A DNA stretch of 64,000 nucleotides from Candidatus Omnitrophota bacterium. GTDB taxonomy: Bacteria > Omnitrophota > Gorgyraeia > Duberdicusellales > 4484-171. This document shows positions 8,436 to 46,600 of the stretch, one piece after another. The notes under the pieces were generated by a model. It was not told the DNA's origin and did no database searches. It saw only the letters and a list, made by a program, of their open reading frames with translations. The position numbers and the translations under genes are program-made. Each line of letters starts with the position of its first letter. The first letter of the stretch is position 1. The stretch spans positions 198,554-262,553 of the forward strand of contig JBAWWL010000002.1 in assembly GCA_037146775.1 (NCBI GenBank), in the 5' to 3' direction.

Positions 8436-8453
8436 AAAGCATCAATTTTTAAA

Positions 8454-9161
8454 ATGAAAATACGTACCATGAAAGTCTTTTTTTCGTTAAGTATTTTCTT
8501 GGCCTGTTTTTTATGGCCCGGTTATCTCGTGGCCCAGGACGCCGCAGAGAAGATTGTGTATGAGGTATCTCCGCTTTTAGGAGTCTCGGAATATCAGGAC
8601 ATGGGCTTGGTTGATTTTCATGGACGGCGGGTGAACCTGACAATTTTCTATACCAATGTAGCAGGCTTAAAAGATACGGAAAAAATCTACAGCGATCCCA
8701 AGACTAACCTGCCGCTGTGGGTAGAGCGGGATGTCTCTTTGTGGTTGAGGAGGGAATATCTGACCGAAGAGTACGTTTCCTCTGAAAACCGATTAACCAT
8801 AACCAAATTTGTAAGAGGTAAAGAAATAGCAAAATATTCATATCAGGGAAAAGGCCCGATACATAACGCAATACTTCTTCCCTTTGTACTGCGCAAGATG
8901 CCCGAATTGAAACCCGGTTGGTCGTGTAAGATAAGGTTCCCCAATGAATTTACGGTAAAGTTCGTTGGCATAGAGGATGTGAGTGTTCCTGCGGGAAAAT
9001 TTAAAGCCTATCATATTACCAGCACGCCGCATCAATTCGAGATTTGGATCAGCGCCGATAAAGAGCGGTTGCCGGTGAAAATAAAAGGCATCGGAGTATT
9101 TTCTTATACTTTGGCGATGAAACAGCGTATTGTTGGAACGAAAGAGGGGCAGGCGCGTTGA
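8454..9161 (+). CDS. Secreted hypothetical protein (signal peptide)
   Basis: N-terminal signal peptide MKIRTMKVFFSLSIFLACFLWPGYLVAQD. No recognisable catalytic motif. Confidence 0.3.
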   Translation: MKIRTMKVFFSLSIFLACFLWPGYLVAQDAAEKIVYEVSPLLGVSEYQDMGLVDFHGRRVNLTIFYTNVAGLKDTEKIYSDPKTNLPLWVERDVSLWLRREYLTEEYVSSENRLTITKFVRGKEIAKYSYQGKGPIHNAILLPFVLRKMPELKPGWSCKIRFPNEFTVKFVGIEDVSVPAGKFKAYHITSTPHQFEIWISADKERLPVKIKGIGVFSYTLAMKQRIVGTKEGQAR

Positions 9162-9631
9162 AATGGAAGTTTAAGAAAATTCTTGTCCGATTGTTCAAGT
9201 TGAATAATACGCCGCAGGAAATTGCACTGGGAACCGCGATAGGAGTTTTTATCGCCATTCTGCCGGTTTACGGGCTGCATACCGTGATGGTCATTGTTGC
9301 TGCTATCCTGGTCAGGCCAGCCAATAAAATCGCTATTCTTTTAGGAACGAACATTTCTTTACCCCCGACCGTTCCTTTTATAACCTGGGCAGGCTATGAA
9401 ATCGGTAGGCTTATCTTAAAGGGTAATTACGAACCCTTGGCCTGGTCGGATTTCAAAAATATAACATTCAAAAATATCTCCAGCCACTATAAACCGCTAT
9501 TTTTAGGCAGCGTAATTCTAGGGATTATCTGTGCGATTGTATTTTACTTTCTCATCTTTTTTTTAGTGCGGAAGATAAAAAACAGAAAGAAGCATGCCCG
9601 AAGAACCAAAAATACATATCAGAAAGTTTGA
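9158..9631 (+). CDS. DUF2062 family membrane protein
   Basis: The N-terminus with TPQEIALGTAIGVFIAILPVYGLHT is the hallmark of DUF2062. Confidence 0.5.
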   Translation: MKWKFKKILVRLFKLNNTPQEIALGTAIGVFIAILPVYGLHTVMVIVAAILVRPANKIAILLGTNISLPPTVPFITWAGYEIGRLILKGNYEPLAWSDFKNITFKNISSHYKPLFLGSVILGIICAIVFYFLIFFLVRKIKNRKKHARRTKNTYQKV

Positions 9632-10247
9632 AGTAAAAGACCGCCAAGTCGTCAGGTCTATCATCCATGATGCTGCGCTTATGGGAGATTCTGCCTCGCT
9701 GTTTTTCGAAGGAAGGGAGATTATCAGCGATGCGCTTAGCCTGTACTTCACCGATTACGAGCCGGAGTCTTGTTTTGTCGCCGAGGTTAACTCGGTTGTC
9801 GCCGGCTGCTTAATTGGTGCGAAAAATAAAACTGTTTCGGAAAAAGTCATTGCCGTAAAAATTTCTCCTCGTTTATTTTGGAAAGCCTTGAATATGGGCG
9901 CTTTCTTACAGAAGAAAAATATTATTTTTATCTTTCGCTGTGTGTCCGGATTATTTACCGACGGCCTGAAGACTCCGGATGTGACCAAAGAATATCCGGC
10001 TACCTTGCATATCAATATAAAAAAAGAATTCCGCGGCCTTCACGTTGGTTCAAACCTGATGGGCGCTTTCCTGGAGTATCTTAAAGAAAATAAAATTTCC
10101 GGTGTGCATTTAGCTACGATGTCCGATGCGGCGGCGAACTTTTTCTCTAAACATGGTTTTGAGTTGCTTTATAAAGGTAAGAGATCTTATTTTCGGCACA
10201 TATTGCACAGAGATGTGCCTCTTTATCTGTACGGCAAGAAGCTATAA
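9594..10247 (+). CDS. GNAT-family N-acetyltransferase
   Basis: The N-terminal IRKFEVKD start and an acetyl-CoA-binding-like region (LHINIKKEFRGLHVGSNLMGAFLEYLKENKISGVHLAT). Confidence 0.4.
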   Translation: MPEEPKIHIRKFEVKDRQVVRSIIHDAALMGDSASLFFEGREIISDALSLYFTDYEPESCFVAEVNSVVAGCLIGAKNKTVSEKVIAVKISPRLFWKALNMGAFLQKKNIIFIFRCVSGLFTDGLKTPDVTKEYPATLHINIKKEFRGLHVGSNLMGAFLEYLKENKISGVHLATMSDAAANFFSKHGFELLYKGKRSYFRHILHRDVPLYLYGKKL

Positions 10248-10274
10248 AATTTTCAAACATAAAAAGATGCGTTT

Positions 10275-11405
10275 ATGAAAATATCCAGGTTAGCTTTTTG
10301 TGCGGTTATAATAGCTTTGGTATTATACGCGTCTGTTGTTAACGTTAGCGTGCAATGTCCAGTTGTCTCCCGGATGGCTATGCCAAAGGGCTCGGAAATT
10401 TTAAAGGTCAAGCCGGCTCAAGTATGCAAATTTCTATCTTTTTCAACTATTGTCTACGCTCAAGAAACAGGAATAAATCAGGAAGAAGCTTTTCTTAAAA
10501 AGATGCCGCAGGATATTTTAGAAAGAATCGCCGAAAAGGGCCGGCCCGACGTAAGGGGTATGCTTGATCGTAATCGTCAAGGCTGGTTGCATCCCAGATT
10601 CCAGATGCCTGCGGCATTGTATCTTATTGTTGCTGCGTCTCAAGGTTCAGAGAGCCGCGCCAATGACGCCTGGCGGGCAATCGACGCGGTATTTGAGCGT
10701 CAAACAGAAGCGGGGAATTTTCAGCTTGGCTCTTTCAACGGGAAAAAGCCGGGCAGAATGGATGATTTATCCGGAGTTTCTTTTTGGCTCAACAGCCTTT
10801 GCCATGCTATTTTAGTGGTTCAGCAAAGCGACATGGCTGCGGCTTTTGATGAACGCATTAAAGTGTTGATGCCGAAGATCAAGAAAACAGCATATTGGCT
10901 GGCTGACGGATGCGACGAGCTTAAGAGCTATGACGTTCAGGCGGCAAATCGTCTTTTTCATGATGCGAATGCTTTCGGCTTTTCCGGGCTCTTGCTTAAT
11001 GACGAAAATCTTAAAAGTATAGGTAGAGATTTTTTGGAAGCAGGCTTAAAACTTCAACGTGAAGACGGCGTGTTTATGGAGAAGGGAGGGCATGATTCCG
11101 GTTACCAAGCGGTTTCTCTTATGTTGTTGCAATCCTATGCCATATATTTTCCGGAAGAAAGACTCAACCAGGCTATAGAACGGGGTATTAAGTGGGAGTT
11201 AAGCCGCGTAAAAGATAACGGCGAAATAGAAGTCGCAGGCAACACACGTACCGGATTAGGGCAGGAAGAATTCTTTGGAAAAATTAAAGATGTTAGTTAT
11301 GAATCGGCAGTCTTGGCATTTTTATATTATGCCGGCCGCACCGGCAGCCAAGATACAACCGCTACGGCAGAACGGATATATAAGTATGTTACACTGAAAA
11401 GATAG
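10275..11405 (+). CDS. Secreted hypothetical protein
   Basis: Signal peptide. No motif assigned. Confidence 0.3.
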   Translation: MKISRLAFCAVIIALVLYASVVNVSVQCPVVSRMAMPKGSEILKVKPAQVCKFLSFSTIVYAQETGINQEEAFLKKMPQDILERIAEKGRPDVRGMLDRNRQGWLHPRFQMPAALYLIVAASQGSESRANDAWRAIDAVFERQTEAGNFQLGSFNGKKPGRMDDLSGVSFWLNSLCHAILVVQQSDMAAAFDERIKVLMPKIKKTAYWLADGCDELKSYDVQAANRLFHDANAFGFSGLLLNDENLKSIGRDFLEAGLKLQREDGVFMEKGGHDSGYQAVSLMLLQSYAIYFPEERLNQAIERGIKWELSRVKDNGEIEVAGNTRTGLGQEEFFGKIKDVSYESAVLAFLYYAGRTGSQDTTATAERIYKYVTLKR

Positions 11406-11530
11406 GCACGGCTTTCAGTGGTGAAACGCTTTTAGCTTCCAATCAGTTGTCCGATTTCTAGCCCGCAACAACAGAAATAATTAGACCGCAAGATAGCCAG
11501 GATAAACCTTTCTTCTGGCCGTAAATATTC

Positions 11531-11559
11531 TTGCTATCACCACGCATCCTGGATATAAT
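11531..11559 (+). promoter_or_regulatory. Sigma70-like promoter (TTGCTA-17 nt-TATAAT) feeding a ~230-nt leader before the DUF4126 gene
   Basis: TTGCTA at 11531-11536, a 17-nt spacer, TATAAT at 11554-11559. Confidence 0.35.
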
Positions 11560-11794
11560 TAATTTATAAGTGCAGAGAGTAAGTATTTTTAGAAAAGTAT
11601 TTTGTTATTGTTCGATATCGTAGGGAGAGGAATTTGACCGCAAACTCCAGCGTACGTAACGGTAAAGAGTTTATCAAAATTGCTGCTTTTTCCATCAGCC
11701 CCGTGCGGAATTTCAAAATTTTAATTTCTAACCATAGGATAAGCGTGTTTCCAAAATTACGTTTCTGCCTTAAAGCCGGTTGGCGAGGTCTGTG

Positions 11795-12403
11795 ATGGAT
11801 GTGTTGAGCTCTGTCGGTGTTTTGTTGGGTAGCTCCTGGGCATCAGGCATCAATCTTTACATGACCGTCGCCGGTTTAGGTATCGCCCAGCGCATGCATT
11901 GGATTAATTTGCCCGGAGAGATGAATGTACTGGGTAACCCTTTGATTATTCTGGTGGCAGCAGCCATGTATGTGGTGGAATTTGTGGCAGATAAGATCCC
12001 TTTATTCGATTCAGTCTGGGATAGTGTACATACTTTTATCCGTCCTGTCGGCGCAGCAGCCCTTGGTTACATGGCTACTTCTAATATCGGCCCGGCGGCC
12101 CAGATTCCTGTCGCCTTGGTTAGCGGAGCGGTATCGCTTGACGCACATTTAACTAAAGCTACCTCGCGCGTCGCAGTTAACAGCACGATTCCCCTGGGAG
12201 TTAACTCGGTGGTCAGCCTCGGCGAAGACGCTTTTGTTTTAGGCGTACTTTATCTGATTATTAAGCACCCCGTTATTGCCGCGATATCGGTTATTCTCTT
12301 CATTATATTTTCTATCTGGTTTTTAATCATGATGTTTAAATTTTTAAAGAAAGTATTGCGTTTCATCTTCAGGTCAGGCGAGAAACCATATCAACCCGCA
12401 TGA
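11795..12403 (+). CDS. DUF4126 family membrane protein
   Basis: MDVLSSVGVLLGSSWASGINLYMTVAGLGIA... is typical of DUF4126. The ATG at 11795 is preferred over the TTG at 11780. Confidence 0.5.
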   Translation: MDVLSSVGVLLGSSWASGINLYMTVAGLGIAQRMHWINLPGEMNVLGNPLIILVAAAMYVVEFVADKIPLFDSVWDSVHTFIRPVGAAALGYMATSNIGPAAQIPVALVSGAVSLDAHLTKATSRVAVNSTIPLGVNSVVSLGEDAFVLGVLYLIIKHPVIAAISVILFIIFSIWFLIMMFKFLKKVLRFIFRSGEKPYQPA

Positions 12404-13347
12404 GAAAATATATTTTGACTGTGACGTTGAATCCCGCCATAGATAAGACCGCCAGAGTAGATCGTCTTCGATTGGGCCGTGACCACAGGGAAGAGGAACT
12501 GCATGTAAGTGCCGGCGGTAAAGGGGTCAATGTTTCTCGTTCGCTGGCTATATTAGGAGAGCCTACTTTAGCCACAGGTATTGTGGGGGGCCATACCGGC
12601 AAGTACCTGATCGCGCAATTAACAAAAGAAGGCATTAGAAATGATTTCCTCGAAACCGAAGGCGAGACCAGGGTAAATCTTACCGTTATTGATTCTTCTT
12701 CGTACGCTATTACCCGTATTATAGAGCGCGGCGTGCCGGTTACGCAGAAGATATTCGCGGCGTTTAAAGAGAAATACAAAAAACTTGTGCAACGAGCGAG
12801 CTATGTTGTTTTCTGCGGGGCTAACGCGTATGGTTTAGACGATAGAGCCTACGGTGAGCTTATCGCCATCGCGCATCGAGCGGATGTGGCGACAGCTCTG
12901 GATACACGCGGTGAATCTTTAATAGCCGGCCTTGCGTCGAAGCCTTTTATGGTAAAGCCTAATATTGAAGAAGCCGGATATATCGTGGGCGAAAAGCTTA
13001 CTACTCTTTCAAAAATAAAGAAAGCAGCGCGCTCTATAGCGGAGCAAGGTGTGCAGATAGTGCTTATCACTATGGGCTCAAGGGGTGCGCTGGCTTATAA
13101 TGGGAAAGAGGTGATATATGCTGCTCCCGGAGCTCTGACTTGTGTTAACCATGTCGGCTGCGGAGACGCTTTTCTCGCGGGGTTCATATCTTCACACAAA
13201 AGTCGGCTGTCTTTTAAGGATTCGCTCCGGAGGGCAGTAGCTGTTGGCTCAGCCAGCGCTTTGACTAAACAGCCCGGAGATTTTCGGATGAATGATGCTA
13301 AAGAAATTTTTGCCAAAATAAGAGTAAATACGCGGTTGTGTGCGTAA
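12400..13347 (+). CDS. PfkB-family sugar kinase, 1-phosphofructokinase/tagatose-6-P kinase-like
   Basis: N-terminal TVTLNPAIDKT, GGKGVNVS, and C-terminal GCGDAFLAGF anion-hole/ATP motif. Confidence 0.75.
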   Translation: MRKYILTVTLNPAIDKTARVDRLRLGRDHREEELHVSAGGKGVNVSRSLAILGEPTLATGIVGGHTGKYLIAQLTKEGIRNDFLETEGETRVNLTVIDSSSYAITRIIERGVPVTQKIFAAFKEKYKKLVQRASYVVFCGANAYGLDDRAYGELIAIAHRADVATALDTRGESLIAGLASKPFMVKPNIEEAGYIVGEKLTTLSKIKKAARSIAEQGVQIVLITMGSRGALAYNGKEVIYAAPGALTCVNHVGCGDAFLAGFISSHKSRLSFKDSLRRAVAVGSASALTKQPGDFRMNDAKEIFAKIRVNTRLCA

Positions 13348-19351: not shown

Positions 19352-19474
19352 GGGTAGTTAAAGGGGTCAGACCCATAATTAAAGGGGTCAGATCTTCAGA
19401 TGTCAGATAAATTGCGGAAGGTAGTTAAAGTAATTAAAGGGGTCAGACCTTCAGATGTCAGATAAATTGCGGAA
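19352..19474 (+). repeat. Tandem (~57-bp unit x2, first copy shortened) REP-like element containing the 30-nt core AAAGGGGTCAGACCTTCAGATGTCAGATAAATTG
   Basis: Core copies at 19358-19374 (partial), 19381-19417 (one mismatch) and 19436-19472. The same core recurs at 24280-24313 (+) and 29981-30008 (-). It contains the small palindrome GGTCaGACC. Confidence 0.6.
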
Positions 19475-19500
19475 AGGTAATGTTTTCCTAGGTAGTTCTT

Positions 19501-19529
19501 TTGACAGATTTTCCATTTCGCGGTATATT
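19501..19529 (+). promoter_or_regulatory. Sigma70-like promoter TTGACA-17-TATATT directly downstream of the REP-like repeats
   Basis: TTGACA at 19501-19506, a 17-nt spacer, TATATT at 19524-19529, about 8 nt before the ATG at 19538. Confidence 0.35.
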
Positions 19530-19537
19530 TAAGAATC

Positions 19538-19876
19538 ATGAATGGATCCAAACATCAGTGGTTGCGCGCGTTTGTCCTGGGCGCTATGCTTAGCTTCCTG
19601 CTAATAATTGCTATAATTCTTTTGTGGCGGGTACGTACAAGCGGTTTTGCATTTACAGGTACAGGCATAAAACATTTCGGCGAATTGTTTCAGGGAAACC
19701 TACTCCTGCATATTTTTCTTGGTTTTTTTATTTCAGTTTTTAGCTCCACCATTTTTGTTTATTTTCTGGGCTGGTTTATTATAATTAGTATAGGAAAGTA
19801 TATTGTGAGGTCCTCGCAAAGATGTTGTGGGTTAAATTTATGGCTTACTATCACACGATTTCTACGTATCCTTTAA
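19538..19876 (+). CDS. Small hypothetical membrane protein (doubtful)
   Basis: The ORF follows a good promoter but has no SD and no similarity I can recognise. Confidence 0.2.
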   Translation: MNGSKHQWLRAFVLGAMLSFLLIIAIILLWRVRTSGFAFTGTGIKHFGELFQGNLLLHIFLGFFISVFSSTIFVYFLGWFIIISIGKYIVRSSQRCCGLNLWLTITRFLRIL

Positions 19877-19889
19877 GGATAAGTAGCTT

Positions 19890-20369
19890 ATGAAACGTGA
19901 TTATCGTTATTTAAAAGAAATTGCAGAGAAAGGTGTCTTCAAAGAAGGCCAGGAGGTAGAGGCAGTGGTATATGCTTTTACTGACTTAGGCGTCAAGGTT
20001 GCAATTAATGATATGTATAGCGGGCTTGCTTACAAAAATGAAATTTTTGACGATCTCGACTGTGGCCAACAGCTAAAGGCCTTTATAAAATGTATAAGAG
20101 AAGACGGTAGGATTGATGTTTCGCTGCGGCCGCGGGAAGGAAAGCAAGTTTTGGATACGGCAGGGAAAATTCTCAAATTGCTTAATGAAGCGGGTGGGCG
20201 ATTATCATTTAATGATAAGAGTTCCCCCGAGGATATTAAAAAGCACTTTCAAACAAGTAAGAAAGTTTTTAAAAAAGCAATCGGAGTGCTCTATAAACAG
20301 CGCAGAATAAAAATCACAACCACCGGCATTGAAATGGTTCCTGCGAGTAATTGTGATCGGCAAAAATGA
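19890..20369 (+). CDS. S1-like RNA-binding domain plus C-terminal winged-helix protein (short CvfB/YitL-like)
   Basis: The C-terminal SKKVFKKAIGVLYKQRRIKI resembles the CvfB winged helix. N-terminal S1-like beta-barrel region. Confidence 0.4.
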   Translation: MKRDYRYLKEIAEKGVFKEGQEVEAVVYAFTDLGVKVAINDMYSGLAYKNEIFDDLDCGQQLKAFIKCIREDGRIDVSLRPREGKQVLDTAGKILKLLNEAGGRLSFNDKSSPEDIKKHFQTSKKVFKKAIGVLYKQRRIKITTTGIEMVPASNCDRQK

Positions 20370-20427
20370 TATTGAACGTCTATGCAGGAAAGATTAAAAC
20401 CCCGTTGCGTACAGCGAGGCAAAGTGA

Positions 20428-21159
20428 ATGGATATGCCAGAAGATCAAGCTCATCTAGGCGGTTATTTTAAAGGGGATCCGAATGCGTGGTGTCCGGATC
20501 TTTGGAATCTTGTGCATGATAAGCTGCATGTGAAATCGGTTTTGGATGTCGGCTGTGGCATAGGACGCTCTACGGCTTATTTTAAAAAGATAGGTTGTGA
20601 AGTGTTGGGGGTTGACGGCAGCCCCGAAGCCAAGCACGAAAGTCTGATCCCGGAGTTTCATATAGTCCATGATTTTACCAAAGGCCCCTTTATCCCGCCC
20701 AAAAAATATGACTTGATTTGGTCCTGCGAATTTGTAGAACACGTGGAAGAGCCATGTCTGGATAATATCCTTCAAACATTTGGCAGTAGTAACAAATATA
20801 TAATGATGACGCATGCGCAGCCGGGGCAAATGGGTTATCATCATGTGAATTGTCGGTCCGGAGTGTATTGGATAACAAAATTATATAAAATCGGATTTAA
20901 GATCGATTTTTGTTTAACAAAGGAAGCCAGGAAGGTGGCCGGCCATGGTTATTTTAAAAAAGACGGTTTAGTCTTTATCAGGCAGCAAGGCGCGACGGGA
21001 TCAGTTCCTGTGGTTTTTTATGTGTCAGTATTATTGCACCAGTGTATCTGGTATATGCAATATATTATTAGTTTCTGTAAAGAAAAAGGGTTCCCGGAGA
21101 CAATAAGAAAATTATACGGTAGGTTGTTGAGGGTAGGTTTTCTATGTTCCCAAAAGTAG
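20428..21159 (+). CDS. Class I SAM-dependent methyltransferase
   Basis: Motif I VLDVGCGIGRST and an acidic residue after beta-2 (VLGVDGS). Confidence 0.55.
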   Translation: MDMPEDQAHLGGYFKGDPNAWCPDLWNLVHDKLHVKSVLDVGCGIGRSTAYFKKIGCEVLGVDGSPEAKHESLIPEFHIVHDFTKGPFIPPKKYDLIWSCEFVEHVEEPCLDNILQTFGSSNKYIMMTHAQPGQMGYHHVNCRSGVYWITKLYKIGFKIDFCLTKEARKVAGHGYFKKDGLVFIRQQGATGSVPVVFYVSVLLHQCIWYMQYIISFCKEKGFPETIRKLYGRLLRVGFLCSQK

Positions 21160-22823
21160 CGGTTATCATCCTTAATTATAACGGTAAAGACGATACCTTG
21201 GAATGCTTGGAGTCCGTTGATAAGATCGATTATCCCCATCTTGAAGTGGTTGTCGCGGATAACGGTTCGGCCGATGGATCCCTCGAGGCTATCCGCCATA
21301 AATTTCCGCAAACAAAAAACATTGCTCATAACGTAAATTTAGGATATGCCGAAGGAAATAACCGTGCAATTCTTGATGCGGTGTCACGGGGCGCCGAGTA
21401 CATTCTTCTTTTAAATAATGATGTCGTTGTCGATGCGGGAATCGTCGGTTATTTGATGCACGCGATAGAAAAGTTGCCTCAAGCAGCGTTTCTAAGCCCG
21501 AAAATATATTATTTTGCAGAGCCAAATAGAATTTGGTTTGCCGGTGGGTACTGGTCATCTAGGTGCGCTAATATTATTTCATCGGGATACCAACAAATAG
21601 ATGATTGCGTCAGTTGGGAGGAAACCAAAGAAACGGAATTTGTATTTGGCTGCGCCATGTTTTTTAAGGCCGATATTATCAAACATATTAATTTAATGTC
21701 TTCGGAATATTTCTTGGTGTGGGAGGAAAGCGATTGGTGCATGCGGGCCAGAAAGTTAGGATATAAGTGTTATATTGTGCCGGCGGCCAAAGCCTGGCAC
21801 AAGATTGAAGCTTCTTTCCGGAAGGCATCCGATGGGCTCTTACGGTATTATTTTTGGAATAGAAATCGGCTGCTTTGGATGGAACGAAATATTTCATGGT
21901 CAGAAAGACTATATGTTTTATCGGTAATTGTTATACCCCAAATATTTAAAAATTTCGTTGGACTGTTTGACTTTCAAGCCTGGTCGCTGAGGCGGCTACG
22001 TTGTAAGGTTTATATGTGTGCGGTACATGACTATGTATTTCGCAGATTCGGCGATGCTCCGGGTGAGCTTTACAAGATGCTAAAAAACTTTATTGCCCAG
22101 AAGCCCGAAACTTTGATTATTATAACACCTACATATCCGCGTGCTAATCGGATTGCTTGTCTCGATCGATGTGCAAATGTTTTTAAAAAAGTTGATGAAT
22201 TATTATGGATTGTTATCGAGGACGGAGCTGCCTTGAATGAGGAAGTTACGCAGCTGCTTAAACAAAGCGGCATCAACCATATATATCTGCATTTTGGTCC
22301 GACGCGTTGTTGGGGCAATGAACAACGTAATCATGCTCTGGAATATATCAGAGATAATAACATAAAAGGTATTGTGTACCTGGCCGATGACGATAACTAT
22401 TATGATCCTCGTTTGTTTACCGAGATTAGAAAAACAAAAAAAGTTTCCATTTTTCCTGTCGGTAATCTCGGTCCCAATGGTATAGAACGGCCGGTTATCT
22501 CGGGCGGAAAAATAATTGGCTGGGATGCCCATTGGCTAGACCGTAAGTTCCCCGTTGATATGGCTGGTTTTGCATTTAACGCTGATATACTGCAAGGTTT
22601 AGAAGGACAACCTTGGAATTATTGTCCAGCAGATAAAAGACGCGGCGGGGAAAGTGAGTTCCTGGAGCGGCTGGTTGCTACAAGCGATGAATTGGAGGTG
22701 CTGTGCGACTCATGTACAAGGTGCTATGCGTGGCATAATTTACCGCTTGACGTGAATCCACTATGGGCTGTTATTCATGCGCGATTATGGAAATTTCTGA
22801 AGCGCATGATTTCTAAGATGTGA
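21144..22823 (+). CDS. Bidomain glycosyltransferase: N-terminal GT2 (GT-A) fused to a C-terminal GT43-like (beta-1,3-glucuronyltransferase-like) domain
   Basis: GT2 signature: VAVIILNYNGKDDTLECLESV..VVVADNGSADGS. The C-terminal half has IIITPTYPRANR, WIVIEDG and VYLADDDNYYDPRLFTEIR, which closely mirror the GT43 motifs (I.VVTPTY.R, WIVVED, FADDDNTYS..LF). Confidence 0.6.
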   Translation: MFPKVAVIILNYNGKDDTLECLESVDKIDYPHLEVVVADNGSADGSLEAIRHKFPQTKNIAHNVNLGYAEGNNRAILDAVSRGAEYILLLNNDVVVDAGIVGYLMHAIEKLPQAAFLSPKIYYFAEPNRIWFAGGYWSSRCANIISSGYQQIDDCVSWEETKETEFVFGCAMFFKADIIKHINLMSSEYFLVWEESDWCMRARKLGYKCYIVPAAKAWHKIEASFRKASDGLLRYYFWNRNRLLWMERNISWSERLYVLSVIVIPQIFKNFVGLFDFQAWSLRRLRCKVYMCAVHDYVFRRFGDAPGELYKMLKNFIAQKPETLIIITPTYPRANRIACLDRCANVFKKVDELLWIVIEDGAALNEEVTQLLKQSGINHIYLHFGPTRCWGNEQRNHALEYIRDNNIKGIVYLADDDNYYDPRLFTEIRKTKKVSIFPVGNLGPNGIERPVISGGKIIGWDAHWLDRKFPVDMAGFAFNADILQGLEGQPWNYCPADKRRGGESEFLERLVATSDELEVLCDSCTRCYAWHNLPLDVNPLWAVIHARLWKFLKRMISKM

Positions 22824-22904
22824 AAATGGATAGCAGGACGAAACCACGCGAAAAAATCATAAACGATACCGTCTTTGTTAAATTATATACAAAAATAGAT
22901 TGAA

Positions 22905-24309
22905 ATGGCAAGAATATTATTGATTTCAGTATATGATATTAATGCAGAGGGGTTGAGAAGCCTATCTGCTCTGTTGAAGAGTAAAGGACATCAACCGTAT
23001 ATCGTATTCCTTAAGCGATACGGAAAAAGCGGCTCTTTTGTCTTTAATTGGCGAGGTCAAGCCTGAGCTTATCGGTATTTCAGTAACAACGCCGTTAAGA
23101 AAAAAGGCAGTCGAAATATCGCTATTGATAAAGAACATATATGCTATACCGATTGTTTGGGGAGGTCCAGATCCAACTATAAGCGCACAAGATTGCTTAG
23201 CGTATTGTGACTTCGTATGTGTCGGTGAGGGAGAAAAAACTATTATTGATATTGCTTCGGCGCTTGATGTAAAGGATGACATCAAGAAAGTGAATAATAT
23301 CGCGTATATGGCAGCTGATAGATGTGTTCGAAATCCTCTGAATCCTTTGGTAATCGATTTAGATAGTCTTCCTTTTAAAGATATAGATAAGGATAATAAG
23401 TTTTTGATAGAAGATAATATGTTGATAAGAAATTTCCATGAAGTAAGCAACACATTAAATTATAAATATCATCTGATAGGTGCGCGAGGGTGCCCCTATG
23501 GCTGTTCGTATTGTTGCGAAGATTTCTATAAAAAATTGTACGATAAACAAGTTTTTTTAAGAAGAAGGTCTGTTTCTCACATAATACAAGAATTAGAAGA
23601 AGCAAAGATAATACGCTACAAATTTGTTCAATTTGAAGATGAAGTTTTTTCTTATGACTATGATTGGTTATTGGAATTTAAAGATAGGTATAAAAGCGAG
23701 ATTAACCTTCCATTCACATGTTATATTTATCCAAATAAAAATATCGAAAGGCAATTGAAAATTTTGAAAGAAACAGGTCTCACTCGCACATGCTTGGCAT
23801 TGCAATCAGGTAGTGGTAGGATAAACAAACAAATATTTAATAGAGTTTTCGATAGAGAACTTTTTATAAAAACAGCTAGGTTGCTGAAATCAATGGATAT
23901 AGAGTATTACGTTGATGTTATAACGTTTAATCCTTTCGAGACAGAGGAAGACCTGCGGTTAACCTTGGACGTTCTCAATGAACTGCCGAGGCCATTCTGG
24001 TTGTGTATTAACAAGCTATATGTTCTCAAAGGTACAAAAATATATACTTTGCTTAAAGATTATAAAAAAACAATAAAGAGTGCGATTCCGGAAAGACTTT
24101 TTACCTACTACAGCCTTCTATTTTGGCGGACAACAGAGTATCATAAAAACCTGGTCAAGTTTATATATGCGATAAGAATATTTAAGTATTTTCCAGCTTT
24201 GTTTAATTATACATCAAAAATATATTCCTGTATTCGTAATCCCAGAGATATTCCTAAAAGAATAAAACGAAAGTTCATCAAAGGGGTCAGACCTTCAGAT
24301 GTCAGATAA
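22905..24309 (+). pseudogene. B12-binding radical SAM enzyme interrupted by a +1 frameshift in a T-run (~23036-23039), with its C-terminus replaced by a REP-like repeat
   Basis: The ATG at 22905 encodes MARILLISVYDINAEGLRSLSALLKSKGHQPYIVFL..., a typical B12-binding-domain start, and stops at 23055. Frame +1 from TTG 23038 continues with ..KPELIGISVTT.. and the radical SAM CPYGCSYC motif. The last 9 codons (KGVRPSDVR*) are encoded by the 30-nt repeat at 24280-24309. Confidence 0.5.
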
Positions 24310-24313
24310 ATTG
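24280..24313 (+). repeat. REP-like 30-nt element copy (AAAGGGGTCAGACCTTCAGATGTCAGATAAATTG) immediately upstream of the transposase gene
   Basis: Exact match to the core at 19436-19472. Lies 32 bp upstream of the transposase (RAYT-like) start. Confidence 0.6.
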
Positions 24314-24344
24314 ACAAAGCATTAACAAATGTTATCATACGTTC

Positions 24345-25289
24345 ATGGCAAGACCTTATAGAATCCAAGGTGAAAATTGTCTTTACCATATAACCAGCCG
24401 CGGCGATGACCGCAAGAAAATTTTTATCAGCGAAGTAGACTACACAAAATTCCTCGAATATTTAAAGTCAGCTCAAGCAAAATTCAAATTTTATCTTTAC
24501 GCCTATTGTTTGATGGACAATCATTACCATCTTTTCCTGGAAACCGCTCAGGCTAATCTTTCAAGGATAATGCAATATATCAATACTTCCTATACTGTGT
24601 ATTACAACGTAAAACGTAAGAAATGCGGGCATTTGTTTCAGGGGAGGTATAAATCTATCCTGGTGGAGGCAGACAGTTATTTTCTCGAATTAACCCGCTA
24701 CATTCACTTAAATCCAGTCAGGGCTAAAATAGTTACTGATCCGGAAGCATACAGGTGGTCGAGCTATAACGAATATATCAAAAAAACAAAAGATAACCGT
24801 ATAGACAAAGAACAGCTACGCAAATATTATAAGCTATCTTGTGGTAGCTATAAAACATTTATACTTGATGGCATAAATAAAGAAGAATCGCCTCTTAGTA
24901 ACTTATATGCCGGCTGCATCCTGGGAAAAGAAAAATTCATCAAAGATACGCTTGCTGCTTTAAAAATTACTGTCGAGAGCAAAGATTTTTCTCATAAGAA
25001 GACACTCAGTGGTGTAGATCCAAAAATAATAATTCAAGAAGTTGCTGACTATTACAAAAAAGAGCCCGAGGTGTTATATAAAGCCGCAAAGAAACCTGTG
25101 TTGGCAAAAAAGATAGCAGTATATTTATTGAAAAAATTAACCGGTTTAACCAATAAAGAAATAGGTGATATGTTTGGTATAGGATATTCTGGGGTAAGTT
25201 GGATTGCCCAGAACGTTGAGGGAATAATAAGCCGAGACACTAAGGTAAAAGAAGACATCGCGAGACTTATCTTACGTCTGAAGGCCTGA
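24345..25289 (+). CDS. HUH (Y1) transposase of the IS200/IS605-TnpA/RAYT type with a C-terminal DnaA-domain-IV-like HTH
   Basis: HUH motif in CLMDNHYHLFLE. The N-terminal MARPYRIQGENCLYHITSRG is typical of TnpA_IS200/RAYT. The C-terminal KIAVYLLKKLTGLTNKEIGDMFGIGYSGVS resembles the DnaA C-terminal HTH. Confidence 0.65.
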   Translation: MARPYRIQGENCLYHITSRGDDRKKIFISEVDYTKFLEYLKSAQAKFKFYLYAYCLMDNHYHLFLETAQANLSRIMQYINTSYTVYYNVKRKKCGHLFQGRYKSILVEADSYFLELTRYIHLNPVRAKIVTDPEAYRWSSYNEYIKKTKDNRIDKEQLRKYYKLSCGSYKTFILDGINKEESPLSNLYAGCILGKEKFIKDTLAALKITVESKDFSHKKTLSGVDPKIIIQEVADYYKKEPEVLYKAAKKPVLAKKIAVYLLKKLTGLTNKEIGDMFGIGYSGVSWIAQNVEGIISRDTKVKEDIARLILRLKA

Positions 25290-25321
25290 TCCCGCGGGTG
25301 CAAACTTTTCAATAACAACTC

Positions 25322-26305
25322 ATGTCTAAAAGAATTAAGAATTTATTAAAAAAAATCATAAGGAGCAATCCTGCGGTATTTAATTTTTATAGTTCCATCT
25401 ATCGTAAAATAAACCCCTTACAAGTTGAGTATGGATGGGGAGCATTGCCAAAATTAGTAATGATTGAACCTACAAACGTTTGTAATTTTTCTTGCGTTAT
25501 GTGTCCAGGCAAATTAATGAAACGCAAGCGCGGTTTTATGGAATTAAAACTATTCAAGTTGGTCCTTGATAAGGTCCAGGAAGCAGGAATTTCTCACATT
25601 ATCCTTCATACTGTAGGAGAGCCCTTAATGCACCCAAAATTTTTAGAAATGCTGAAGCTTTCTGTTTTGTGTCCTACGATTAAAAAAGTAGAATTCTACA
25701 CAAACGGGTCATTATTGGATGAAACATATATGAAAGAGATATTGAATATGAAGATATGCAGAGTTTATGTTTCATTCAGCGGCTGGGATAAGAAAAGTTA
25801 CGAAACGAGATATTGCGGCGGAGTGTTTGAAGATATAGTTAAGAAGCTAACAATGTTTAATCAAATGATACGTGCTTACGGGGCACCCTTGCAAACACTT
25901 ATGATAAGCGGGCTGGTGGATGAAGAATGGGAAAAAGAGAAAGTAATAATTTTTTTAAAAAATATCGGCTTGGAAACCAGTCAAGTCAGTCTTTTGCATC
26001 CTTTCAATTGGATTGGTTTTATTTTGAACAGCTATAACTGTAGCATTGACGGGCACGACAATACTAAAAGTAAACAGCGAGCCTGTTATTTTATCCGTGA
26101 TAACCCCGGCATTTTGCATGATGGTAAAGTAACAGCATGTGGTTGCCATGATATTAATGGCGAGCTTCTTATCGGCGATATTCAAAAACAAAGTATATCG
26201 GAAATCAGGAAAGGAGCATATTTTAAAGAAATTGTATGTAAACTTAAGCAAGGGAATTTGGGCGGTCTGGTTTGTCACAAGTGTGACGCTGTTGAAAGAT
26301 GGTGA
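25322..26305 (+). CDS. Radical SAM enzyme with a C-terminal SPASM/twitch-like Cys cluster
   Basis: CNFSCVMC (CxxxCxxC). Glycine-rich GEPLMHP. C-terminal cysteines ACGCHD...CHKCD. Confidence 0.7.
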   Translation: MSKRIKNLLKKIIRSNPAVFNFYSSIYRKINPLQVEYGWGALPKLVMIEPTNVCNFSCVMCPGKLMKRKRGFMELKLFKLVLDKVQEAGISHIILHTVGEPLMHPKFLEMLKLSVLCPTIKKVEFYTNGSLLDETYMKEILNMKICRVYVSFSGWDKKSYETRYCGGVFEDIVKKLTMFNQMIRAYGAPLQTLMISGLVDEEWEKEKVIIFLKNIGLETSQVSLLHPFNWIGFILNSYNCSIDGHDNTKSKQRACYFIRDNPGILHDGKVTACGCHDINGELLIGDIQKQSISEIRKGAYFKEIVCKLKQGNLGGLVCHKCDAVERW

Positions 26306-26461
26306 TAGCCAGGGTTAGCGGAATTATGGGTAAGCAAATATTAAAGGGATTTATGTATCCCGAAAATCTACCGCTTTTGATATACCGATGGATGTGAATC
26401 TGTGGAGGATTACAAGGGTTCGACGTAGCTGGCCACCAGAGAGATTGAAAAGGAGAAGGCG

Positions 26462-27967
26462 ATGAAAGTAACATTAATTTACCCAAATATAAATAATATT
26501 CCGAGTTATAGTTTTGGATTGGGCATTATTGCCGCTTACTTGAAGCAAAACGGCCACAAGGTCCAGGGGTTCTATATAGATTCAGAGACAGAAGAAGATA
26601 TCGACTTGGTGAATATTGAAAAACAGATAAAGAAATTCAATCCAGGGTTAATAGGATTTTCATCTGTCTCCAACCAATATAACTTTGTAAAACTGATCGC
26701 AAGGCACTTAAAGCGTAGTGGCATAAATGCGAAGATTATCGTTGGGGGGGCTCATCCCACGATTGCTCCCGAGGAAGTTATAAAAGAAAATTTTATTGAT
26801 ATGGTTTGTGTGGGCGAAGGAGAAGACGCAATCCTCGAATTAGTTAATAAATTAGACAAAAAAGAGGATATCTCGAATGTAAGAAATATTTGGTTAAAGA
26901 AGGGTGATAGAGTATTAAGAAATGGCTTAAGGCCTTTGATTAAAGATCTAGGGAGGCTGCCTTTCGCCGACAGAAATTTATTTGATTTCAGAAATATTTT
27001 AGAAAAAAGGAGAGGTTGGGTCAATATTTTAGTTAGCCGCGGTTGCCCATTTCAGTGCAGTTATTGTATTAACCATTATCTTGGAAAGATAAATAAAGAA
27101 AAATTCACAATTAGGATGAGGCCGATTGATCATGTTTTGTCAGAAATTGCTGAGATTGAGAAAGGGCAGGAAATAAAAATGGTTAACTTTGCCGACGATG
27201 CCTTTACGGTCAACAAAGAATGGACATTGAAATTTTGTAAAGAATATCCTAAAAAGTTTAAAAAATACCCTTTTGCGTGTAATGCGAGGACAACCAACTT
27301 TGATGAAACATTAGCATGTGCTCTGAAAAAAGCCGGATGTGCTGAAGTTAAGATGGGTCTTGAGTCCGGTTCAGGAAGGGTAAGAGAGGAGATTTTGAAT
27401 AGATCTATGACGAATGGACAGATTGAAAAAGCATTTAGTGTAGCAAAAAAATTTGGGATAAGAACATGGGCATTCAATATGATTGGAATACCTACGGAAA
27501 CAAAAAATGAATTATTAGAAACAATTAAGTTAAATGCTAAGATAAGACCCTACATATTATGGTGCTCCATACTATTTCCATATAAAGGTACAAAGCTTTA
27601 TGAGCGGTGTCTTAAAGAAGGGATAATTGATAAAAATAAACAATTTAAATATACTTCCTATTTTAACGGAACAATATTAAAATTGAAAGATTTCACCGAG
27701 GCCGATATTGTGAGATATAAAACAATGTTTAGGTGGTATGTTGATGCCTACAGTAATATTGAGGTTGCGCCCCTTTACAAAGGGCTTGTAAGTTTGTTCG
27801 AGGCCTTACCAAGTAAAATGTGGATGACTAAAGAAGCCCAGAAATTATTCAAGGAGCTAGATGGTAATGTCGATGATTTATTAAAAATATTAAAAAAAGA
27901 ACATTATAGTTCAAGGGGTCATCTTTATTTAAATTTTTCTGCGGCAACGAATTGGGAGTTGCCCTAG
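26462..27967 (+). CDS. B12-binding radical SAM enzyme (class B radical SAM family)
   Basis: N-terminal B12-binding domain (MKVTLIYPN..GLGIIAAYLKQNGHKV..GFSSVSNQ). Radical SAM VSRGCPFQCSYC. Confidence 0.75.
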   Translation: MKVTLIYPNINNIPSYSFGLGIIAAYLKQNGHKVQGFYIDSETEEDIDLVNIEKQIKKFNPGLIGFSSVSNQYNFVKLIARHLKRSGINAKIIVGGAHPTIAPEEVIKENFIDMVCVGEGEDAILELVNKLDKKEDISNVRNIWLKKGDRVLRNGLRPLIKDLGRLPFADRNLFDFRNILEKRRGWVNILVSRGCPFQCSYCINHYLGKINKEKFTIRMRPIDHVLSEIAEIEKGQEIKMVNFADDAFTVNKEWTLKFCKEYPKKFKKYPFACNARTTNFDETLACALKKAGCAEVKMGLESGSGRVREEILNRSMTNGQIEKAFSVAKKFGIRTWAFNMIGIPTETKNELLETIKLNAKIRPYILWCSILFPYKGTKLYERCLKEGIIDKNKQFKYTSYFNGTILKLKDFTEADIVRYKTMFRWYVDAYSNIEVAPLYKGLVSLFEALPSKMWMTKEAQKLFKELDGNVDDLLKILKKEHYSSRGHLYLNFSAATNWELP

Positions 27968-28173
27968 TTTTCTGTCGTTTAGAGACCAAGATTTTCTTGT
28001 TGAAATAGAAGTAGATGCAGTGGGTATAATCTAAAAGAATCGAAATCTTGCAAAAATGTGCTTAAGAAAGTCTGTATCCGGGCATCCGGCCGGTGATTGA
28101 TTGTAATGGCGCAAGATGATTAGTCTATCTGCAGCCGATTGCAAAAAATAAAGTTATAAAAGAAAAAAGGGAG

Positions 28174-29838
28174 ATGTCTATGCAAAAAAACCGTAAGTCC
28201 ACCGTTGCTACCTATCTTATAAAGCGTCTTGAGCAAGCAGGGCTAAAGCATATCTTTGGTGTCCCGGGAGATTATGTGCTCACGTTTTTTGATTATCTTG
28301 AAAAGAGCAATCTGAAGGTGGTTTGTAATTGTAATGAACTGAACGCCGGCTACGCGGCTGATGCTTACGGACGGTTAAGCGGCCTATCGGCTGTTTGCGT
28401 TACATATGGCGTAGGTGGGTTTAGTCTTTTTAACGCGGTTGTGGGCGCATTTGCAGAGCGTATACCACTTGTTGTTATAAGCGGAGCACCAAGGATTTTC
28501 GAACGGGCTCATCATCACCTGTTGCACCATACTACCGGCGACATAAATCTTCAGTACAGCATGTACGAAAAAGTAACCGTTGCCTCATGTGTGTTGACCA
28601 ATCCAGAACAAGCTCCCGCCCAAATTGATAAGACTATTGAGGCTTGTTTGAAGTTTAAGCGTCCGGTTTATATCGAAGTCCCTATTGATATTGTTCATTG
28701 TGCGTGTCCAGAACCGGGGTCGTTTGCTATGGATACAATTATCACAAGCGATAGGCCATCTCTTGACGAAGCCGTTTCCGAGGCAGTCACGTTACTCCAG
28801 GAGGCCGCACAGCCGGTGATTCTTGCTGGCGTCGAGACTCATCGTTTTAGAATTCAGCGCCAACTGCAAAATCTTATAGAGCATAGCGGGTATCCATTTG
28901 CTTCGTCGTTATTAGGAAAAACGGTCCTCCCCGAAGAGCATCCGCAATTTGTAGGTGTGTATGGAGGGGTTGCCAGCTGGGAAAGTGCGCGTAAAATAGT
29001 TCAGCGGGCAGATATTATTTTGTGTTTGGGTACGATCATGACTGATATAGAAATAGGAGGATGTAAACCTTTGCTTGATCCCGGCCGGATGATCATCGCT
29101 AATTCCGACAAGGTCCGCATTAAACACCATGTGTATAATCACATAAGTCTCAAGGATTTTATGGTCGGCTTGAAGAGTAAGCTAAAAAAAGGTAAAGTCG
29201 TTAAAGTTTCAAATTCTTACCATCCGTCCAGCGCACTGAAAACGGAATATAAGGTGCAGTCCGGACAGAAAATTACGGTGAAGCGTTTTTATCAAAGGAT
29301 GAATAGTTTCATAGACAGGAAATCGATTGTACTTGGGGAATCGGGAGATTCTTTATTTAATGTAGCAAGCCTCTTTTTACCGAAAGGAGCATCTTGTATT
29401 GATCAGGCGTTTTATCTTTCTATCGGTTATACTGTGCCCGGTACGCTTGGTGCCGGCCTTGCCGCCCCGGATTCGAGGGTAATAACTTTTGTGGGAGACG
29501 GCGCGTTCCAGATGACTGCCCAGGAAGTGTCCACGATTATCAGAGAGAAGTTAAATCCTATTATTTTTGTTATGAATAACGATGGGTATACCATTGAGCG
29601 TGTCATGGTTGATGGCGCCTTTAACGATATTCAGATGTGGAAGTATTCCGAACTGCCAACTGTTTTTGGCGGCGGGTGGGGGTGTGTTGTCAAAACAGAA
29701 GATGATCTTGAAGCTGCTTTATTGGAAGCAAGGCGGCGCAAAAACGAGTTCGCGCTTATCGAGGTGCGGTTGGATAAATTTGATTGTTCTGAGGCCGTAC
29801 GAATGTATGGTATAAAATACAAAGCAGCAAAGCAGTAA
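28174..29838 (+). CDS. Thiamine-diphosphate-dependent 2-keto-acid decarboxylase (pyruvate/indolepyruvate decarboxylase family)
   Basis: N-terminal GVPGDYVLTFFD (PYR domain). C-terminal TPP motif GDGAFQMTAQE...NNDGYTIER. No FAD-binding middle domain typical of acetolactate synthase. Confidence 0.75.
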   Translation: MSMQKNRKSTVATYLIKRLEQAGLKHIFGVPGDYVLTFFDYLEKSNLKVVCNCNELNAGYAADAYGRLSGLSAVCVTYGVGGFSLFNAVVGAFAERIPLVVISGAPRIFERAHHHLLHHTTGDINLQYSMYEKVTVASCVLTNPEQAPAQIDKTIEACLKFKRPVYIEVPIDIVHCACPEPGSFAMDTIITSDRPSLDEAVSEAVTLLQEAAQPVILAGVETHRFRIQRQLQNLIEHSGYPFASSLLGKTVLPEEHPQFVGVYGGVASWESARKIVQRADIILCLGTIMTDIEIGGCKPLLDPGRMIIANSDKVRIKHHVYNHISLKDFMVGLKSKLKKGKVVKVSNSYHPSSALKTEYKVQSGQKITVKRFYQRMNSFIDRKSIVLGESGDSLFNVASLFLPKGASCIDQAFYLSIGYTVPGTLGAGLAAPDSRVITFVGDGAFQMTAQEVSTIIREKLNPIIFVMNNDGYTIERVMVDGAFNDIQMWKYSELPTVFGGGWGCVVKTEDDLEAALLEARRRKNEFALIEVRLDKFDCSEAVRMYGIKYKAAKQ

Positions 29839-29980
29839 ACAGATAAAGACAGTAATTGAAAATCAGGAAGGAATTGCTGCCGAAGAATGATCTTAATTTA
29901 TCAAGAAATAATGAATAATTGGTCGGCTGTTACGCGTGGCGAGCCAATGCAACAGCATGGAAAATAAAGGCGTTTTAGGG

Positions 29981-30008
29981 TTTATCTGACATCTGAAGGT
30001 CTGACCCC
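29981..30008 (-). repeat. REP-like 30-nt element copy in inverted orientation
   Basis: TTTATCTGACATCTGAAGGTCTGACCCC is the reverse complement of the core GGGGTCAGACCTTCAGATGTCAGATAAA. Confidence 0.6.
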
Positions 30009-40575: not shown

Positions 40576-40685
40576 TATATAGTCGTGAGTATTGAGTACT
40601 GAGTATATAGTGGGGGAAGGACGTATATAGTATAGAGTACATAGTATATCGTAAACAAACTGGGCGGAGGGTAACGGGGAACTCG

Positions 40686-40764
40686 GTGGACGGTTGCGGT
40701 TACTCGCCTCGATTTGCTCGGCGAAGCGGGCGAAGCTCGTCTCGGTTACGTCTAACGGTAACGT
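40686..40764 (+). repeat. GC-rich ~80-bp element, left copy of an inverted pair bracketing 40.7-45.6 kb
   Basis: ACGGTTGCGGTTACTCGCCTCGATTTGCTCGGCGAAGCGGGCGAAGCTCGTCTCGGTTACGTCTAACGGTAACG is ~90% identical to the reverse complement of 45532-45615. Confidence 0.55.
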
Positions 40765-41065
40765 TTTATAATAAACTCTAAACCAAAATATTTCAAACTC
40801 AAAACACTATTGTTTAGGATTTTGAATTTATGATTTTGGATTTGTTTAGGATTTAGTCCTTCGACTTCGCTCAGGACTAATGGCGAGCACAGTCGAACCA
40901 TTAGAGTTTTCCACCTCCATAATGCACTTATTATGGTGGATCCGCCTAAGTTTTAACGGTGGCGGAAGTGTTTAGGGTTTATTTACCACAACCTCACGAC
41001 TACATACTCTATACTACATACGACATATTATCTCCCTACTGCAATGCTTGACAAGATAATCTGTT

Positions 41066-42039: not shown

Positions 42040-42060
42040 TTAGCAAGCACCAACAAGCAT

Positions 42061-42290: not shown

Positions 42291-42308
42291 TCCAGCTTTC
42301 ATGTTCTC

Positions 42309-42337
42309 TTGACAAAAAGCTACCGTTTATTTACAAT
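42309..42337 (+). promoter_or_regulatory. Sigma70-like promoter TTGACA-17-TACAAT upstream of the P-type ATPase with a ~250-nt structured leader
   Basis: TTGACA at 42309-42314 and TACAAT at 42332-42337. The leader contains hairpins, e.g. GGAACTG-13 nt-CAGTTCC at 42382-42408. Confidence 0.4.
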
Positions 42338-42585: not shown

Positions 42586-45177
<2,592 letters not shown>

Positions 45178-46534: not shown

Positions 46535-46600
46535 TTTATTATTTTGTAATTTGAATTTTGTTATTTGTCATTACCAAAGAGGAGGATGAACGTGGAAAAG

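Follow-up and report, generated by a model that had tools for sequence, protein, structure and literature searches.

Short repeats that recur on both sides of a transposase gene and its neighbours raise the question whether they mark the borders of a mobile gene cassette or belong to the transposase gene itself. We address it for a stretch of 64,000 nucleotides (nt) from a Candidatus Omnitrophota bacterium (GenBank assembly GCA_037146775.1, contig JBAWWL010000002.1, positions 198,554 to 262,553), referred to here as the window. In the available text of Di Nocera, De Gregorio and Rocco (2013, BMC Genomics 14:522; PMC3733652), RAYT-like genes with flanking terminal inverted repeats (TIRs) are called TIRtrons and their enzymes TIRYTs. 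We consider it probable that the Y1/HUH transposase gene at 24.3 kb, whose product has a DnaA-like C-terminus, forms a TIRtron with two inverted 28-nt repeats, and that the repeat copies at 19.36-19.47 kb and 29.98 kb are its solo and tandem TIR offspring. The TIRtron occupies a short spacer between two genes of a glycan-modification set of low guanine-plus-cytosine (GC) content (a methyltransferase, a GT2-GT43 protein, three radical SAM genes and a decarboxylase-type enzyme dependent on thiamine pyrophosphate, TPP), and the repeats do not mark the borders of this set.

The transposase gene and its inverted repeats

Alignment of the repeat copies with their flanks gave a 28-nt unit with sharp edges, GGGGTCAGA[C/T]CTTCAGATGTCAGATAAA. 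Its copies, the transposase gene and a candidate promoter are as follows.

19363-19373, plus strand: 11-nt repeat stub, GGGGTCAGACC, an exact match that opens a small tandem array
19384-19411, plus strand: solo 28-nt TIR copy, intergenic, 27 of 28 positions matching
19439-19466, plus strand: solo 28-nt TIR copy, 28 of 28, in direct tandem 55 nt past the preceding copy
24283-24310, plus strand: left TIR of the TIRtron, at the same position relative to the gene in 41 family loci
24311-24338, plus strand: sigma-70-like promoter candidate, TTGACA-16-TATCAT with TG, 11 of 12 consensus positions, abutting the left TIR
24345-25289, plus strand: TIRYT gene with Y1_Tnp and Bac_DnaA_C domains (from Pfam, NCBIfam, the match to structure 1J1V and the alignment of 26 members)
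25266-25293, minus strand: right TIR, degenerate, 23 of 28 (5 mismatches)
29981-30008, minus strand: solo inverted TIR copy, 28 of 28, intergenic between the TPP enzyme gene and a TPR gene

The gene is bracketed by inverted 28-mers, which together with it make a unit of about 1,011 bp (24283-25293). Scanning the window with up to nine mismatches recovered five copies only (0-1 in shuffled sequences). The approximately 72 kb of the source genome examined, which include 8 kb beyond the window reached through its last protein (its first protein had no match on record), hold the same five copies, all within 10.7 kb and each within 5 kb of the transposase gene; there were none elsewhere in the window or in those 8 kb. 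As a longer, 34-nt match the repeat lies on the plus strand at 19381-19414 (one mismatch), 19436-19469 and 24280-24313, with none expected in shuffles, and a 24-nt core recurs inverted at 29985-30008. The preliminary description of this region, made from the sequence alone, had reported the tandem copies at 19.36-19.47 kb, the copy at 24.28 kb and the inverted copy at 29.98 kb; all are real and far above shuffled expectation. It had missed the fifth, inverted copy over the stop codon of the Y1 gene (25266-25293). The distance from the 24.28-kb copy to the transposase gene, which it gave as 32 bp, is borne out: the copy ends 31-34 nt before the ATG at 24345, according to whether the 34-mer or the 28-mer is counted. 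A census of the 22-nt core in 185,579 species-representative genomes, among which the source genome apparently is not, returned one match, in another Omnitrophota metagenome-assembled genome (MAG); this genome (locus L003) is the only one with the exact core, in a single exact copy, and none was found in viral contigs. A locus of assembly GCA_964613555.1 (L001) is identical to window positions 14345-35289.

The right TIR covers the end of the TIRYT gene, namely its stop codon and the seven sense codons before it, reading CTTATCTTACGTCTGAAGGCCTGA and then TCCC. It appears to be under coding constraint, to which we ascribe the decay of this end, since a perfect copy would place a TGA five codons early. 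The outer end reads GGGGTCAG at the left TIR and the solo copies and GGGATCAG at the decayed right TIR, and the TIR variant of the window carries three TCAGA motifs. Agreement with the left end is 27-28 of 28 positions for the solo copies and only 23 of 28 for the right end of the gene itself; the pattern points to solo copies that may have arisen by recent copying or gene conversion. Further remnants of a Y1 gene were looked for beside the solo copies and none were found. On the left, the last eight codons and the stop codon of radical SAM gene 1 come from the TIR. Truncation of this gene by the TIR was considered and rejected: alignments with homologs end about 5-25 residues from the end of the open reading frame (ORF), so that at most a short tail was replaced, and the C-terminus is near full length in comparison with homologs. 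Conceptual excision of the TIRtron unit gives an outcome that varies with the boundary chosen.

The unit does not fold. The 28-mer alone reaches -0.7 kcal/mol (z=+0.8), and copies with their flanks have z values from -1.3 to +0.1. Neither a GTAG nor a CGTC head is present on the repeat unit, which starts with GGGG. Because it has no hairpin and no such head, we do not regard the window repeat as a REP. No Rfam family matched the window at gathering thresholds.

The earlier assignment of the gene to Y1/HUH transposases with a DnaA-like C-terminal helix-turn-helix (HTH) was confirmed by Pfam matches above the cut-offs for Y1_Tnp (54.5 bits, cut-off 23) and Bac_DnaA_C (33.9 bits, cut-off 31.5). 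The best NCBIfam match was NF047646 (REP_Tyr_transpos), with 73.7 bits under a cut-off of 80, and the IS200 model NF033573 scored 16.3 bits against a cut-off of 55. From the initial label of REP-like repeats with a RAYT/IS200-type transposase we therefore retain a RAYT-like enzyme with cognate repeats; the repeats are not REPs, the RAYT cut-off is missed and the IS200 score is low. The protein is on the RAYT-like branch, and the repeats are its cognate repeats. The HUH motif (H60-Y61-H62), Y119 within YIHLNP and R101 are invariant across 26 aligned members of 32-70% identity, and at least 90% of them also have Q99 and G100 of the Q-G-R motif. Conservation of HUH, Tyr119 and Q-G-R argues, at the level of sequence, for an active enzyme under purifying selection.

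The DnaA-domain-IV-like HTH occupies residues ~227-312. A single-sequence search of solved structures returned only Escherichia coli DnaA domain IV on a DnaA box (1J1V, E=4e-4, residues 231-312), and no Y1 or RAYT chain was among its results. DnaA reportedly contacts bases through D433, H434, T435 and H439, as Fujikawa is said to have described in 2003. The TIRYT residues aligned to these in the 1J1V alignment are G, Y, S and W; the contact positions thus differ, and a different DNA specificity is therefore expected. We also considered a DnaA box within the repeat, the reverse strand of which, TTATCTGACA, resembles TTATCCACA. This idea was dropped because the family consensus has no such match, because the residues at the contact positions of 1J1V differ, and because Quentin et al. 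(2018) likewise reject it in the available text (PMC6006769).

The left TIR abuts the -35 box of the putative promoter, the ATG lies 6 nt past its -10 box, and a Shine-Dalgarno sequence is absent. This arrangement suggests that the transposase mRNA may be leaderless, and many family members have a similar promoter geometry, with the -35 box inside the TIR. By analogy with IS200/IS605 TnpA and the E. coli RAYT, the HUH/Tyr domain would cut single strands of DNA at the GGGG-tagged ends or close to them and join them again. The DnaA-domain-IV-like HTH would bind a double-stranded part of the TIR, including the stem that arises when two inverted copies pair. Copies would spread locally as singles, tandems and hairpin doublets, and the promoter whose -35 box abuts the left TIR would give a leaderless transposase mRNA.

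Taken with the GGGGWSAS consensus from the available text of PMC3733652 and PMC6006769, the element has an HUH motif and a catalytic tyrosine, inverted TIRs instead of REP hairpins, a GGGGWSAS end, a Bac_DnaA_C-type HTH, and solo copies. In the available text of Quentin et al. (2018, BMC Genomics 19:475; PMC6006769), TIRYTs belong to TnpA_REP subclass 2.1, and a Bac_DnaA_C-like C-terminus defines subclass 2.1.2. Because each testable defining feature is present, we file the element as a TIRtron encoding a TIRYT of subclass 2.1.2.

The bracketed gene in metagenomic relatives

A metagenome scan with the TIRYT protein gave 80 loci with 33-61% best-segment identity (most 33-47%). For each complete gene we compared the 150 nt upstream with the region of the stop codon, using the maximum from shuffled sequences as the baseline. 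An inverted match between the two ends exceeded this baseline in approximately 46 of the 58 evaluable loci. These matches nearly always start with GGGGTCAGGTCT, and their inner part, which varies from locus to locus, is shared by both ends of any one locus. In 493 kb of family loci the terminal motif was counted 149 times, compared with three times in shuffled loci. Adjacent plus/minus motif pairs of gene size (900-1300 bp) number 41, and the bracketed-gene layout recurs in 41 of the 80 distant relatives. None of the 41 gene-sized inverted pairs carries cargo; the transposase gene alone is enclosed. Among the motif copies there are also six short plus/minus doublets (80-250 bp), and 51 copies belong to no adjacent plus/minus pair.

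Several of these loci show the repeats in other arrangements. A 69%-identical homolog in another Omnitrophota MAG (L004) has the TIR-bracketed layout of the window with a repeat variant, GGGGTCAGACCTTGAGATGTGAGATGG, whose C-to-G changes are present at both ends. Locus L034 holds four doublets of 80-83 bp within 6 kb (7463-13264), derived from its own TIR; with perfect 26-30-nt arms and a loop of ~25 nt, they are REPIN- or MITE-like hairpins. Similarly, L008 has two doublets of ~250 bp made from its own TIR (133-2704). The Omnitrophota MAG with the exact core (L003) contains an internally deleted TIRtron of ~215 bp (4960-5181), made up of an exact left 28-mer, then ~40 nt, the final 47 codons of a homologous gene and, as right repeat, a variant. 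This deleted unit shows how short derivatives can arise, and it may be an intermediate towards MITE-like doublets.

The family comprises more than 7,500 protein matches, nearly all of 313-316 amino acids, and many homologs are on contigs of only 1-1.6 kb. One Logan contig (L002, SRR12676968) opens at the left TIR, its position 1 corresponding to window position 24284. This start fits an assembly break with k=31 at the 34-nt stretch common to 19436-19469, and such breaks at repeats may explain the short contigs.

Extra copies outside doublets tend to share the orientation of the nearer end of the element (upstream 13 plus and 0 minus; downstream 14 minus and 4 plus). Counted by locus, 16 are consistent with this rule and 2 inconsistent, and the window conforms to it. 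The bias comes mainly from copies within ~200 bp, that is, tandemly duplicated ends such as the array at 19.4 kb; among copies at distances above 1 kb the count is 7 loci to 3, which is not significant.

The low-GC gene set and alternative explanations of the repeats

The gene calls of the segment around the TIRtron in the preliminary description were confirmed; the neighbouring features are these.

20428-21159: methyltransferase
21144-22823: GT2-GT43 fusion, 559 amino acids (GT43 domain E=7.5e-52)
22850-28150, no strand: low-GC block with the three radical SAM genes and the TIRtron, GC 0.356, no edge at a repeat
22905-24309, plus strand: B12-binding radical SAM gene 1 (N-terminal fragment 22905-23066, main ORF 23038-24309)
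25322-26305, plus strand: SPASM radical SAM gene 2, starting 28 nt past the right TIR
26462-27967, plus strand: B12-binding radical SAM gene 3
28174-29838: TPP decarboxylase-type enzyme

The radical SAM genes had been described by eye as AT-rich, and this holds. The block from 22.85 to 28.15 kb has a GC content of 0.356, compared with 0.427 for the remainder of 1-40.6 kb; the three radical SAM genes have 0.337, 0.366 and 0.362 and the Y1 gene 0.351, against 0.40-0.45 in their neighbours. GC changes abruptly near 22.85 kb and again near 28.15 kb. The outer repeats (19.4 and 30.0 kb) are in DNA of normal GC, 3.4 kb and 1.9 kb outside the block, and one repeat and the transposase gene are within it. 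Composition across 18-31 kb is thus not uniform, as the cassette proposal would have it, but the low-GC block neither starts nor ends at a repeat. By tetranucleotide composition the block is closer to a polysaccharide locus at 45-58 kb (L1 distance 0.159) than to the rest of the window (0.257).

That locus, for polysaccharide export and assembly, is a second and larger region of low GC. Over 45900-64000 it encodes a beta-barrel porin, a Poly_export/SLBB protein, a protein of Wzz-tyrosine-kinase type, a Wzy_C-TPR protein, Bac_transf, an ABC-2 permease and two Wzt-like ATPases, and it runs on past the window (L094) with GT1, GT2 and Wzy_C genes. Low GC here looks like the usual signature of variable glycan loci, unconnected to the repeats, and it is compatible with horizontal exchange. 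In this window, then, low GC marks glycan loci and not a repeat-bounded insertion, and for annotation the lesson is that such TIR repeats are not to be taken as island borders.

The window holds other repeats as well. The polysaccharide locus contains a 300-nt exact direct repeat (57820-58119 and 59155-59454); each copy makes up the 5' end of one of two neighbouring genes for Wzt-like ABC ATPases (57811-59070 and 59146-60390; the Wzt_C domain is present in the second only). Intergenic DNA at 40600-45700, 51100-51260 and 53500-56200 is filled by other families of short repeats, among them a CCTAnCAA-type array with a period of 8 nt (13 registers), units of TACTACATAC type and T-rich units. One nucleotidyltransferase gene and one P-type ATPase gene lie between two 89-nt arms (40682-40770 and 45527-45615) with 84% complementarity. 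The tandem TIR array at 19.4 kb sits just upstream of a gene for a CvfB-like protein (19890-20369) of 159 amino acids, which has the second domain and the winged helix without the usual N-terminal S1-like domains. We considered orf112 as the missing N-terminus of this gene and rejected it; it resembles a small membrane protein instead.

Gene order around the segment is scrambled in the nearest relatives (70-74% identity for the flanking RlmI-like, rRNA-methylase-like, gene). Three of them, with 72-74% identity for this gene, share no neighbours with the window. Searching all fetched loci with the segment proteins by tblastn gave scattered matches only, without a common gene order: paralogs and homologs of radical SAM proteins 1 and 3, weak matches to the GT2 domain and one match to hyp141.

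The individual radical SAM genes were examined further. Gene 1 is frameshifted near 23.02 kb and is either a pseudogene or the product of an assembly error; when it is repaired conceptually, a full B12-binding domain is restored, with a score of 51 instead of 35 bits and a match spanning profile positions 10-118. Gene 2 is publicly annotated with a start at 25517 (262 amino acids), downstream of a CxxxCxxC motif at ~25485-25505. We place its start at 25322 (327 amino acids) because the motif precedes 25517. The planned assignment of the three proteins to families led to no characterised subfamily: none reached an NCBIfam equivalog threshold, and all scores were far under cut-off. Gene 1 matched TIGR04013 (76 of 251 bits) and gene 2 the tungsten-cofactor maturase (91 of 380 bits), and gene 3 matched HpnJ (131.5 of 577.6 bits), the ladderane-type model (127.7 of 360) and BchE (127.9 of 481).

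Homologs of gene 3 with 52-71% identity lie among GT4, GT2, epimerase, nucleotidyltransferase, STT3 or PMT_2 genes, and no other gene of the segment accompanies them. Their phyletic spread is sparse, with ~7 clusters at 62% identity or more, compared with more than 100 for the neighbouring rRNA-methylase-like gene. Genes 1 and 3 resemble Class B radical SAM enzymes of glycan and natural-product clusters in combining B12-binding and radical SAM domains, and homologs of gene 3 are likewise found beside glycosyltransferases, epimerases and nucleotidyltransferases; they differ from characterised Class B subfamilies in that neither approaches an equivalog threshold. The GT43 family is best known from glucuronyl- and xylosyltransferases of animals and plants. 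A role of the gene set in modifying sugars, raised in the preliminary description, finds weak contextual support in the occurrence of gene 3 homologs in glycan clusters.

With these results the alternatives can be weighed. The proposal from which we started, of a cassette of radical SAM genes between 19.35 and 30.0 kb that was horizontally acquired or REP-mobilised and is delimited by classical REPs together with a RAYT, is highly improbable. Inverted ends do bracket the segment (19439 on the plus and 30008 on the minus strand, 28 of 28), the segment is partly AT-rich, and gene 3 has its sparse phyletic spread; however, the repeat is non-palindromic with no GTAG or CGTC head, the RAYT model stays below cut-off, the GC steps at 22.85 and 28.15 kb lie away from the repeats, and genes of 0.34-0.37 GC are mixed with genes of 0.40-0.45. 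In addition, one repeat and the transposase are inside the block, and no conserved cassette was seen among the fetched loci. The idea of delimiting repeats is not supported, given GC edges off the repeats, a block that resembles the locus at 45-58 kb and cargo in 0 of 41 family pairs. We rate as highly improbable that the outer copies serve as ends of a cargo-carrying TIRtron, moving radical SAM genes 2 and 3 and the TPP gene (24283/30008) or the whole 10.6 kb (19439/30008). Such ends would have the correct orientation, the outer copies agree with the left end at 28 of 28 positions while the proximal right end has 23 of 28, and solo copies in the family keep the orientation of the nearer end by 16 loci to 2. 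Yet all 41 gene-sized family pairs enclose the gene alone, the orientation bias stems from copies within ~200 bp (beyond 1 kb, only 7 loci against 3), the putative cargo is mixed in GC (TPP gene 0.45, radical SAM genes 0.35), and coding constraint would account for the decay of the right end. If the outer copies (19439 plus/30008 minus, or 24283 plus/30008 minus) were nevertheless functional alternative ends mobilising several kb of adjacent genes, which is a long shot, a TIRYT, so far known only to bracket itself, could move a radical SAM/TPP glycan-modification set by a process like the one-ended or read-through transposition of other HUH elements, with the orientation tendency as its footprint.

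An ordinary autonomous IS200/IS605-type insertion sequence that landed in an operon would account for the Y1_Tnp domain and for the many homologs on 1-1.6 kb contigs, as expected of multi-copy insertion sequences in short-read assemblies. The short contigs are equally explained by the flanking repeats (L002 starts at the left TIR), the IS200 model gives 16.3 bits against 55, subterminal hairpins and tnpB are absent, and the element has terminal inverted repeats, which IS200/IS605 elements do not, so this explanation is extremely unlikely. We attach equally little credence to the 28-mers as non-mobile DNA, namely operator- or promoter-associated sites of a regulator that co-ordinates the gene set. 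Every copy lies between genes or at the end of one, and the copies at 19.47 and 24.31 kb are closely followed by the two best promoter-like matches of the region; but the copies have no consistent orientation or spacing with respect to downstream genes (that at 29981 faces away from the TPR gene), and in the family the unit accompanies both ends of the transposase gene, occurs as hairpin doublets and flanks what is left of an internally deleted gene. The TIRtron with solo and tandem TIR offspring is the reading we prefer. Some points weigh against it: where and on which strand the enzyme would cut, and what its HTH would do, are carried over from the biochemistry of IS200/IS605 and RAYT enzymes, the promoter is a consensus match only, and the outer copies are correctly inverted for alternative ends and better conserved than the gene-proximal right end.

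Comparison with known transposase and repeat systems

TIRYTs are a very large family of HUH enzymes, and a literature search for "TIRYT" found no experimental characterisation. The window provides a clean example from Omnitrophota, in which the catalytic residues are intact and the solo copies nearly identical. The window and the relatives jointly offer natural substrates (hairpin doublets that pair perfectly, a unit with an internal deletion, and tandem ends), which would allow the study of a tyrosine transposase with non-palindromic inverted ends and a DnaA-like HTH.

Elements of the IS200/IS605 group (IS608, ISDra2) share with the window the HUH/Tyr core, and single-strand cut-and-join chemistry is presumed for both. 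They differ in that the window element lacks subterminal hairpins and tnpB, has terminal inverted repeats and an HTH, and encodes a protein that scores far under the cut-off of the IS200 model.

REP/REPIN-RAYT systems have reportedly been described by Nunvar (2010), Bertels and Rainey (2011), Ton-Hoang (2012) and Messing (2012). Like the window, they have a Y1 gene that is probably single-copy and vertically maintained and is flanked by its own short inverted repeats. Like the TIRYT family, they show co-variation of repeat and enzyme between genomes, and inverted doublets forming long hairpins are found in relatives of the window element. In contrast to REP/RAYT systems, the repeat of the window is non-palindromic and without a GTAG head, the protein is twice as long, with an added HTH, and falls below the NCBIfam RAYT cut-off, and the copies are few and local in the ~72 kb examined.

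The closest agreement is with TIRtrons. According to the available text of PMC3733652, many TIRtrons have a GGGGWSAS tag, a 3' repeat that overlaps the gene, and TIR families present as single copies, dimers or groups; for some of the cases described, not all, there are copies at other places in the genome. The window shares with these a RAYT-like Y1 HUH protein of ~315 amino acids with a C-terminal Bac_DnaA_C-like HTH, non-palindromic flanking TIRs whose outer end fits GGGGWSAS, a right repeat over the 3' end of the gene, and additional TIR copies. It differs from described TIRtrons in its host phylum, Candidatus Omnitrophota, in its TIR variant with three TCAGA motifs, and in copies that are singles and a direct tandem, not hairpin dimers. 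Compared with TIRtrons as described in the available text of the source, the left TIR here and in many relatives further stands out in carrying or abutting the -35 box of a putative promoter of leaderless type.

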